From NCBI RefSeq assembly GCF_041248615.1, contig NZ_CP158426.1: a stretch of DNA of 64,000 nt. One strand, written 5' to 3'. Below the pieces are notes generated by a model that was given only the letters and a program-made list of their open reading frames with translations, searched no databases and was not told the DNA's origin. This DNA is from Escherichia coli. GTDB lineage: Bacteria > Pseudomonadota > Gammaproteobacteria > Enterobacterales > Enterobacteriaceae. Position 1 is the stretch's first letter. Every line of letters begins with the position of its first letter. The position numbers were made by a program, and so were the translations under genes. This document shows, piece by piece, positions 18,724-20,541 of the stretch.

Positions 18724-18984
18724 TTACTGACGAGGATGCTTCAATAACTTCTTTACATAATTGCGCAGCAGCTCCGTATCGTCGTCAGGAATGCTGGCAT
18801 CGGGCTTTACCTCGTACAGCGCCCCCTCTACCTGATCAATCAACCTTTGTTGGTCATTTTGCGCCATATTGCGAAGCATTGCAGTGACGATAATCTCCAA
18901 AGCTTCTACCTGCGCGCACAGTTCTTTCGACTCTTCTTCTTTTTGGGCAAGCTTAAATAACAACTCAGCAATGAGATTTTTCAT
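18724..18984 (-). CDS. iraP: Anti-adaptor protein IraP (YaiB), RpoS stabiliser
   Basis: 86-aa [33 protein letters not shown]... Confidence 0.93.
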
Positions 18985-19446
18985 GTCTGTATTTCCTTAT
19001 CCAAAGTATGGAGAAGTTAACATTATGTTTCACAACTTCATAGTGTCTGGAAGTATTATTTTTATGACAAAGGAAATACTTTGCGCAAATATTTTTTGTT
19101 TGATTACCAGCGAAACGTTTCTCTTATTTTAATAATTACCCACACAAAATATAGGCTTTTAATTATCAACCTTTATTATAAATAAAAGTTATGAAATATA
19201 TTCTCTTCGTAAACTTATAATTAAGAGAAAAAAACTCACTGCATGGCCATACAAGCCAGGAATAAATTAGCTTCCCGTTCATCATTTTTGTGATCTTGCG
19301 CACATCATTGAGATAACGCGCTTTCTTCACCAGTACGTTGCACGCTTTGTCAGCAGAAGATTGCAACATTCTGTCAGAAGGCCGCGAATCCCCCGTTTTG
19401 TCGTGGTAATGTATGCACTTTGTGTTAGACGGGATAGGTTTTTAAG

Positions 19447-20541
19447 ATGGAAAAACTGCGGGTAGGAATCGTTTTTGGTGGTAAATCAGCGGAACATGAA
19501 GTGTCTCTGCAATCGGCAAAAAACATTGTCGATGCCATTGATAAAAGTCGCTTCGACGTTGTGCTGCTGGGCATTGATAAACAAGGGCAATGGCACGTCA
19601 GCGATGCCAGCAATTATCTGCTAAATGCAGACGATCCTGCCCATATTGCGTTGCGCCCTTCGGCGACCAGCCTTGCGCAGGTGCCTGGTAAACATGAACA
19701 TCAGCTTATCGACGCGCAAAACGGTCAGCCGTTGCCGACGGTGGATGTCATTTTCCCGATTGTCCACGGTACGCTGGGCGAAGATGGTTCCTTGCAGGGA
19801 ATGCTGCGGGTCGCCAATTTACCGTTTGTAGGTTCTGATGTTCTGGCTTCAGCGGCCTGTATGGATAAAGATGTCACCAAACGTCTGCTGCGCGATGCCG
19901 GGCTGAACATTGCGCCATTTATTACCCTGACGCGCGCTAATCGTCACAACATCAGTTTTGCCGAAGTGGAGTCTAAACTGGGGTTACCGCTGTTTGTAAA
20001 ACCGGCTAATCAGGGCTCTTCTGTTGGTGTCAGCAAAGTAACCAGTGAAGAACAGTACGCAATTGCCGTCGATCTGGCGTTCGAGTTCGACCATAAAGTG
20101 ATCGTTGAGCAAGGGATCAAAGGTCGTGAGATCGAATGCGCAGTTCTGGGCAACGACAATCCGCAAGCCAGCACCTGTGGCGAGATCGTACTCACCAGCG
20201 ATTTTTATGCCTACGACACCAAGTACATTGACGAAGATGGCGCGAAAGTGGTAGTTCCGGCAGCCATTGCGCCAGAAATCAACGATAAGATCCGGGCGAT
20301 TGCCGTTCAGGCTTATCAGACGTTGGGATGCGCAGGCATGGCGCGTGTAGACGTGTTTTTAACCCCAGAGAACGAAGTGGTGATCAACGAGATCAACACA
20401 CTGCCTGGCTTCACCAACATCAGTATGTATCCGAAGCTGTGGCAAGCCAGCGGTCTGGGTTACACCGACCTGATCACCCGTTTGATTGAGCTGGCGCTGG
20501 AGCGTCACGCTGCGGATAACGCATTGAAAACCACAATGTAA
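19447..20541 (+). CDS. ddlA: D-alanine--D-alanine ligase A
   Basis: 364-aa [29 protein letters not shown]...; ATP-grasp Ddl family. Confidence 0.96.

Follow-up and report, generated by a model that had tools for sequence, protein, structure and literature searches.

Why are the divergent genes iraP and ddlA of Escherichia coli separated by an intergenic region as long and as AT-rich as the one they share? We addressed this question in a 64,000-nucleotide stretch of E. coli DNA (RefSeq assembly GCF_041248615.1, contig NZ_CP158426.1), referred to here as the window. The minus-strand gene iraP spans 18724-18984 in the window, and ddlA, transcribed from the plus strand, has its ATG at 19447. The coordinates of the 462-bp spacer in the initial annotation, 18985-19446, are exact, and its description as an AT-rich divergent region is borne out by a GC content of 34.6%, compared with 51.9% for the whole window; in the core of the spacer (19124-19254) the value is 22.9%. 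The spacer is 100% identical to that of strain 7/2 and ca. 98% identical to that of MG1655. The window is the reverse complement relative to K-12, and a K-12 v3 coordinate equals 420370 minus the window coordinate. What the initial annotation missed is the apparent reason for the length of the spacer, namely that intervening genes have been lost. We conclude that the region is most probably a non-coding regulatory spacer created by gene loss, in which regulatory elements have been retained and the annotated 67-codon open reading frame (ORF) at 19166-19369 on the minus strand is accidental.

Origin of the ddlA-iraP spacer

We compared the locus with a sample of 80 IraP-encoding loci from Enterobacteriaceae, taken from one genome per species. 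In most of these loci ddlA and iraP are neighbors, at a separation of 1.7-2.4 kb versus 0.46 kb in E. coli. A gene encoding a 403-amino acid transporter of the major facilitator superfamily (MFS) is found between them on the iraP strand in 66/82 loci, and a gene for a 227-amino acid protein, whose product has no NCBIfam match, in 53/82. None of the eight Escherichia loci contains either gene. With a score of 543 bits in the comparison with the NCBIfam MdtG model, slightly under the cut-off of 571, the MFS protein is best described as an MdtG paralogue.

Sensitive blastn searches show that ca. 82 bp beside ddlA (19365-19446) are common to other genera. At the opposite end, the iraP-proximal ca. 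140-240 bp align to outgroups, clearly up to position 19123 and in Salmonella and Citrobacter up to ca. 19226. The sole outgroup-aligning part of the otherwise Escherichia-specific middle is a 27-nt CRP/-10 element, TCACAAAAATGATGAACGGGAAGCTAA (19293-19267, read on the iraP strand). No MFS coding remnant was detected in the spacer by tblastn with the Salmonella MFS and 227-amino acid proteins (best E = 0.17). The spacer is not recognizable as an MFS pseudogene; only the promoter of the lost gene appears to survive. The features relevant to the origin of the spacer are as follows.

18985-19446, no strand: ddlA-iraP divergent spacer, 462 bp, between the upstream end of iraP and the ddlA ATG
19365-19446, plus: conserved block upstream of ddlA, 70-88% identity across Enterobacteriaceae
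19289-19304, no strand: CRP site TGTGAtcttgcGCACA, TGTGA-N6-GCACA, one mismatch to the consensus
19255-19308, minus: putative relic of the lost MFS gene's class-II-type CRP promoter, comprising the CRP site, the conserved ATGATGAACGGGAAG and the -10-like TAATTT
19264-19269, minus: -10-like TAATTT of the relic at +20 to +25, the position of the outgroup TAAAAY
19227-19262, no strand: approximate deletion junction for the MFS and 227-amino acid protein genes; homology to the outgroup MFS-iraP spacer extends to ca. 19226 and MFS-promoter homology ends at ca. 19262

This arrangement is most simply read as the fusion of two ancestral intergenic regions by deletion of the genes between them. The ancestral order would have been ddlA, often the 227-amino acid protein gene, an mdtG-like MFS gene on the iraP strand, and iraP, with the MFS gene possessing its own CRP site followed ca. 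20 nt on by a TAAAAY -10-like hexamer. Loss in the Escherichia lineage would have fused the ddlA-MFS spacer, carrying the CRP promoter, to the complete AT-rich MFS-iraP spacer, and such a fusion would explain both the length and the AT-richness of the present region. Read from ddlA to iraP, the spacer would then consist of a ddlA promoter block, an orphaned CRP promoter facing iraP, an AT-rich stretch, an RbsR-operator-like palindrome ca. 100 bp upstream of the iraP start, an UP-like A-tract, the ppGpp-activated iraP core promoter and a leader of ca. 30 nt. The gene-loss origin of the spacer is new here.

Smaller independent losses are found in the Citrobacter sp. NCU1 group (loci L009-L011), C. 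koseri and one C. amalonaticus, the MFS gene being lost in L009-L011, L012 and L018. The NCU1 group retains a CRP site with at most one mismatch to the consensus; the ca. 280 nt that come after it are unrelated to the E. coli spacer and possibly include the 3' end of the lost gene. A separate similarity concerns positions 19250-19270, just past the CRP relic, which resemble positions 2820-2840 of C. amalonaticus loci L015 and L017 (18-19/21 identical). The C. amalonaticus segment lies ca. 170 nt upstream of iraP and is placed elsewhere by the multiple alignment.

The orphaned CRP site and its possible roles

Compared with the CRP consensus TGTGA-N6-TCACA, the sequence TGTGATCTTGCGCACA contains a single mismatch. 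The same sequence was independently listed as a novel CRP site in a Footprint-seq preprint of January 2026, with an estimated in vitro Kd of 1.2 nM, 'ddlA / iraP' as the associated genes and a center at K-12 401077 (PMC12871828, Table 1). The center computed here is K-12 401073.5. The seven Escherichia loci other than the window share identical half-sites, with variation at three positions of the spacer between them. In outgroups, a perfect or one-mismatch TGTGA-N6-TCACA is centered 127.5-131.5 nt upstream of the MFS ATG in 43 loci, with half-sites that remain steady across 21 distinct spacer sequences. It is followed by ATGATGAC or ACNGGNAG and by a TAAAAC or TAAAAT hexamer at +20 to +25. CRP site and hexamer are arranged as in class II CRP-dependent promoters, and the outgroup MFS gene has a 5' untranslated region of ca. 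100 nt. Conserved stretches such as CGCATCTCTGG are present in this untranslated region in outgroups (for example at 1455-1575 of locus L033).

Variable columns in Escherichia amount to 15/54 in the CRP block and 98/187 in the remainder of the Escherichia-specific segment (P = 0.001, hypergeometric test). Given the invariant half-sites and a block that varies less than the sequence around it, the CRP site looks maintained and not decaying. We propose that it represents the orphaned activator site of the lost mdtG-like gene, an identification that is new here. A CRP site that ranks among the strongest newly mapped in E. coli would thus be the activator site of a lost transporter, and other orphan high-affinity sites on genome-wide binding maps may likewise be relics or have been repurposed.

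The relic faces iraP. If active, it would initiate transcription at a predicted start site (TSS) of ca. 19257 (K-12 ca. 401113) and give iraP a leader of ca. 270 nt. A long regulated leader of iraP was suggested in the initial annotation and may exist, although the conserved core promoter predicts one of ca. 30 nt. Retained activity, in the form of a cyclic AMP-CRP-dependent transcript, is a tentative addition to the gene-loss account and would provide a carbon-status input to IraP/RpoS control. It is favored by the invariance of the half-sites across Escherichia among variable spacer and flanking positions, by CRP binding in vitro at nanomolar affinity, by the presence of a -10-like hexamer at the ancestral spacing and by the orientation toward iraP. 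There is also a precedent in Salmonella, where iraP has a 218-nt PhoP-dependent leader (PMC3335776). In addition, a hypothetical 276-nt iraP leader folds better than 200/200 shuffled sequences (z = -3.2). Three observations argue against activity. First, the hexamer is weak, reading TAATTT in most Escherichia and GAATTT, with G as its first base, in E. albertii and MOD1-EC7003. Second, a perfect 10-bp pairing with the Shine-Dalgarno region would silence iraP translation from a long transcript. Third, the Term-seq tables of Adams 2021 covered by the analysis contain no 3' ends or iraP-linked RNA features here: these supplements list nothing from the ddlA terminator (K-12 399790) up to a site in phoA (401850), and iraP is never mentioned. 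The pairing partner is the following feature.

18989-18998, minus: iraP Shine-Dalgarno region AAGGAAAUAC, the perfect complement of 19070-19079 (GUAUUUCCUU on the iraP strand)

The 10-nt inverted repeat formed by 19070-19079 and 18989-18998 is paired in the minimum-free-energy fold of the hypothetical 276-nt leader. Since the predicted proximal start is downstream of 19070-19079, the anti-Shine-Dalgarno arm would be present in long or read-through transcripts only. The pairing extends over 8-10 bp in Escherichia and is weak in other genera, and no covariation was found beyond Escherichia and Citrobacter; it could be due to chance. Regarding transcription that enters from the other side, the Adams 2021 supplement lists a 3' end antisense in ddlA at window position ca. 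20029 on the minus strand (K-12 400341, plus), apparently in a table of Rho-dependent sites. If this is a Rho-dependent site, transcription from the yaiZ side would be stopped before reaching the spacer and iraP.

We consider it rather unlikely that the CRP site instead acts on ddlA or is a non-functional leftover. The site does lie between both genes, the preprint associates it with both, and sites of lost genes are expected to linger for some time. A mere leftover is nevertheless difficult to reconcile with two half-sites that are invariant across Escherichia although the neighboring sequence is ca. 50% variable. With respect to ddlA, the site is centered ca. 122 bp before the predicted transcription start. 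Activation by CRP from such a distance would be unusual, the position not being among those typical of class I sites.

A second CRP-like site, TGTGATTATTAACACA, is present in the Citrobacter sp. NCU1 loci (L009-L011, ca. 2925-2940), where it lies immediately upstream of the conserved TTTCCTT and the A-tract of the iraP promoter. TGTGA is absent in E. coli at the aligned position.

An RbsR-operator-like palindrome, the iraP promoter and a candidate ddlA promoter

The iraP-proximal half of the spacer contains a palindrome that resembles the operator of the ribose operon, as well as the predicted promoter of iraP. The features considered in this section, including a promoter candidate on the ddlA side, are listed below.

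19107-19126, no strand: palindrome CCAGCGAAACGTTTCTCTTA, RbsR-operator-like, center at ca. -101 from the predicted iraP TSS
19131-19153, no strand: NagC site aataattacccacacaaaatata, in silico prediction only
19053-19066, minus: A/T tract CATAAAAATAATAC, UP-element-like placement at ca. -51 to -38, near-invariant across genera
19002-19027, minus: iraP core promoter with -10 CATAAT (19027-19022), AT-rich discriminator GTTAAC (19021-19016) and predicted TSS at ca. 19015
19404-19412, plus: candidate ddlA extended -10 TGgTAATGT, within GTGGTAATGT or GTGGTATGTT, reading TGnTAATGT

The rbs operator of a recent RbsR-DNA crystal structure, rbsO, has the sequence TCAGCGAAACGTTTCGCTGA (bioRxiv 2025.04.02.646877, methods). 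The palindrome upstream of iraP matches rbsO at 17/20 positions and its 14-nt core at 13/14, with one half-site being perfect. A 17-nt run within the palindrome, AGAGAAACGTTTCGCTG (19124-19108), is invariant in Escherichia. In 54/81 loci, a core match with at most two mismatches precedes the iraP ATG by 115.5-133.5 nt; the remaining 462 kb of the same loci, serving as a control, contain two. In Klebsiella oxytoca the palindrome stays with iraP despite a different upstream neighbor. There (locus L076, 1779-2771), a LacI-family regulator gene lies directly upstream of iraP and is itself preceded by an MFS permease gene; the RbsR-like palindrome is 116 nt from iraP. Judged by consensus sites, the conserved GTTTCG half-site appears to fit RbsR better than PurR or Cra. 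The ligand could just as well be a different member of the LacI family. Because the palindrome lies ca. 100 bp from the start, simple repression by occlusion is unlikely.

In Salmonella, deletion of rbsR lowers RpoS protein levels at unchanged rpoS transcription, the route from RbsR to RpoS being left open, and permits growth on succinate, as does deletion of iraP (PMC10965054). We found no statement of direct RbsR control of iraP; among the papers matched by our literature search, the two are mentioned together only in that study (and its preprint) and in a lake-water fitness screen. Direct control of iraP by RbsR is a reasonable hypothesis on the basis of the conserved palindrome. Only tentatively do we extend it to a working RbsR operator that would connect ribose via iraP to RpoS stability in Enterobacteriaceae, with the CRP promoter co-opted in addition in Escherichia. 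If true, the operator would explain mechanistically why RpoS levels depend on RbsR, as was described for Salmonella in 2024. IraP sets RpoS stability, and an RbsR-like operator upstream of its gene makes the open RbsR-RpoS observation directly testable. The conserved RbsR-like operator upstream of iraP is new here. The adjacent NagC site, predicted by FITBAR (PMC3098098, Table 2), was set aside as it is poorly conserved even within Escherichia.

On the iraP strand, a promoter scan of the spacer returned CAGACA-16-CATAAT, ending at 19022, as the sole match. The 26-nt run CATAATGTTAACTTCTCCATACTTTG (19027-19002) is invariant in Escherichia, and the -10 hexamer together with the AT-rich discriminator is conserved across genera. 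Transcription of iraP is thus predicted to start at ca. 19015, with a leader of ca. 30 nt. The location of the upstream A/T tract suggests that it functions as an UP element. Guanosine tetraphosphate (ppGpp) is known from the literature to act directly on the iraP promoter.

The conserved block upstream of ddlA is supported by alignment and shows 13/82 variable columns in Escherichia. The candidate extended -10 element within it would give ddlA a leader of ca. 28 nt. As the consensus scan of the block detected no canonical ddlA promoter, this assignment is tentative. Upstream of the candidate -10, the stretch at 19364-19390 contains the block AACATT(C/A)TG(T/G)CAGAAGGCCGCGAA, which is common to genera. 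The ATG of the 67-codon ORF falls within this stretch.

Coding potential, small RNAs and comparison with known systems

The initial annotation also raised the possibility of an unannotated small RNA in the spacer, a suggestion that has found no support. An independent small regulatory RNA might be expected in a long AT-rich intergenic region with conserved islands, and the sense-strand fold described above (z = -3.2) would be compatible with one. However, Rfam searches at a permissive threshold returned chance matches only, at no more than 19.6 bits versus gathering scores of 65-95 for the families concerned. A terminator scan detected no terminator-like site on either strand of the spacer, and the Term-seq supplements of Adams 2021 covered by the analysis assign no 3' end to the spacer or to iraP. 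In the main texts of the literature searched, no names such as ddlA.iraP were found, and the Cappable-seq and SMRT-Cappable-seq supplements yielded neither coordinates nor gene names that match the region. The conserved islands are palindromic or promoter-like and thus point to DNA sites. Overall, we regard a small RNA as very improbable.

The 67-codon ORF had been described as lacking an obvious ribosome binding site and as a probable artefact. The open frame is present, no Shine-Dalgarno-like sequence occurs in the 20 nt 5' of its ATG (gattcgcggccttctgacaga), and its interpretation as an artefact is strongly supported by the results below.

19166-19369, minus: 67-codon ORF, 'hypothetical protein' of the NCBI Prokaryotic Genome Annotation Pipeline (PGAP; WP_000942026.1 and variants), judged to be a chance ORF

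This label lies beneath the match in all 30 sampled rows out of 5,424 matching RefSeq E. coli records, and in the curated K-12 record the ORF is unannotated. Its start codon is unstable, being ATG in 8/15 and TTG in 7/15 sampled Escherichia sequences, with ATG in the window strain and TTG in K-12, O157:H7 and others. For each codon position (1/2/3), variable sites were counted in the ORF and in the two flanking genes.

ORF: 13/16/10 in 11 E. coli-like sequences; 30/31/29 in 15 Escherichia sequences
ddlA: 0/1/23 in 11 E. coli-like sequences; 5/3/41 in 15 Escherichia sequences
iraP: 6/4/16 in 11 E. coli-like sequences; 11/9/40 in 15 Escherichia sequences

Third-position bias is absent in the ORF, and its density of variable sites approximates that of ddlA third positions. 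The frame itself is not preserved. Stops occur at codon 19 and/or codon 25 in E. albertii, the GTDB species of strain E69 and Escherichia sp. E1V33, and a one-base change in a T-run (T7/T6) causes a frameshift and shortens the ORF in three further Escherichia lineages. Strains N1 and FDAARGOS_1254 carry an internal stop and are flagged there by PGAP as having a pseudogene. In E. coli Ec-U7 (locus L090, 1789-2486), an IS1A insertion in the AT-rich part, at the equivalent of window position ca. 19205, splits the annotated ORF and parts the CRP site from iraP.

Pfam and NCBIfam searches with the ORF product gave no match. A word-indexed search with the ORF protein returned 55 Escherichia/Shigella entries and one weak unnamed ENA match (E = 1.5e-4), and an exhaustive HMMER search of 1.84 billion representatives yielded three matches, all of them Escherichia fragments. 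Codons 23-28 coincide with the CRP site and the N-terminal half aligns to outgroup non-coding DNA. In the portion of the ribosome profiling supplement of Stringer 2021 that was searched, no entry lies close to K-12 401001.

A real, young, Escherichia-specific small-protein gene would agree with the recurrent PGAP call, with the 67 codons being intact in most sampled E. coli and with a frame that stays open across 72 nt of 19%-GC DNA. Yet substitutions are spread evenly over codon positions, the start varies by strain and lacks a Shine-Dalgarno sequence, the frame is broken in two E. coli strains by stops, in Ec-U7 by an IS1 element and in six other Escherichia lineages by stops or frameshifts, and the sequence is an orphan that overlies a transcription factor site. 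We therefore conclude that the ORF is not a gene, its existence as one being highly improbable; the frame happens to be open over the AT-rich stretch and the CRP promoter relic. The evidence that this widely annotated ORF is spurious is new here. We recommend that the 'hypothetical protein', which thousands of RefSeq E. coli genomes carry, be removed from the annotation.

Horizontal acquisition of the AT-rich core as foreign DNA, which its 23% GC content against a background of 52% and the IS1 insertion in one strain might suggest, is rejected as scarcely credible because this part aligns to the equally placed iraP-upstream spacers of Salmonella and Citrobacter (CATAACTTT...TGAT.ATT, TTAAGT.AAA) and has thus been vertically inherited.

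Several points weigh against the preferred account, in which the spacer arose by gene loss, its CRP and RbsR-like sites have been retained and its ORF is accidental. Concerning the deletion, the breakpoints are placed only approximately, and a CRP site kept between two lost genes requires either two deletions or an ancestor without the 227-amino acid protein gene. The 21-nt similarity to C. amalonaticus is unexplained and may be due to chance or represent a clue to the deletion junction. With regard to the CRP relic, the boundaries of the block used in the conservation test were partly picked after inspection of the data, and its activity, like the start positions of iraP and ddlA, is a prediction. 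The assignment of the palindrome to RbsR is a proposal from sequence similarity, and 13/14 matches are expected by chance at ca. 0.7 per genome, so that the case for the palindrome rests on its conservation. Finally, PGAP persists in calling the ORF, whose frame is open through the 19%-GC stretch in most E. coli.

The elements of the spacer can be compared with well-described systems. The relic resembles class II CRP promoters with a center near -41.5, such as galP1, in its 16-bp TGTGA-N6-TCACA-type site, in the lack of a -35 element, in the -10-like hexamer 20-25 nt past the downstream half-site and in nanomolar CRP binding in vitro. It differs from them in that Escherichia has lost the gene it served, one half-site reads GCACA, the hexamer is the degenerate TAATTT and promoter activity is inferred. 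The ORF is similar to other 'hypothetical proteins' spuriously annotated in AT-rich intergenic DNA, being an orphan that lacks a ribosome binding site, is unconstrained and has been spread by automated annotation. In contrast to the usual cases, it is unusually widespread, occurring in most RefSeq E. coli genomes, and overlies a transcription factor site.

The palindrome shares with rbsO of rbsDACBK the core GCGAAACGTTTC and the full half-site CAGCGAAAC, and like rbsO and other LacI/GalR operators it is symmetric around a central CG. In contrast to rbsO, its second half-site has two mismatches and the site is found ca. 100 bp upstream of the start instead of over the promoter. The iraP core promoter, with a GTTAAC discriminator after CATAAT and a poor -35, is similar to promoters activated by ppGpp/DksA (iraP, uspA) and adds nothing new to them, the core promoter of iraP and its ppGpp control already being known. 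The closest counterpart of the whole region is the iraP region of Salmonella with its PhoP boxes (Tu 2006; Zwir 2012), which possesses a homologous AT-rich spacer, core promoter, A-tract and palindrome and in which iraP can be expressed from distal promoters that produce long leaders. E. coli has no PhoP-box match at the aligned position, and in Salmonella the MFS gene is retained and still served by the CRP site. Overall, the features of the E. coli spacer represent new instances of familiar kinds and leave established views in place.

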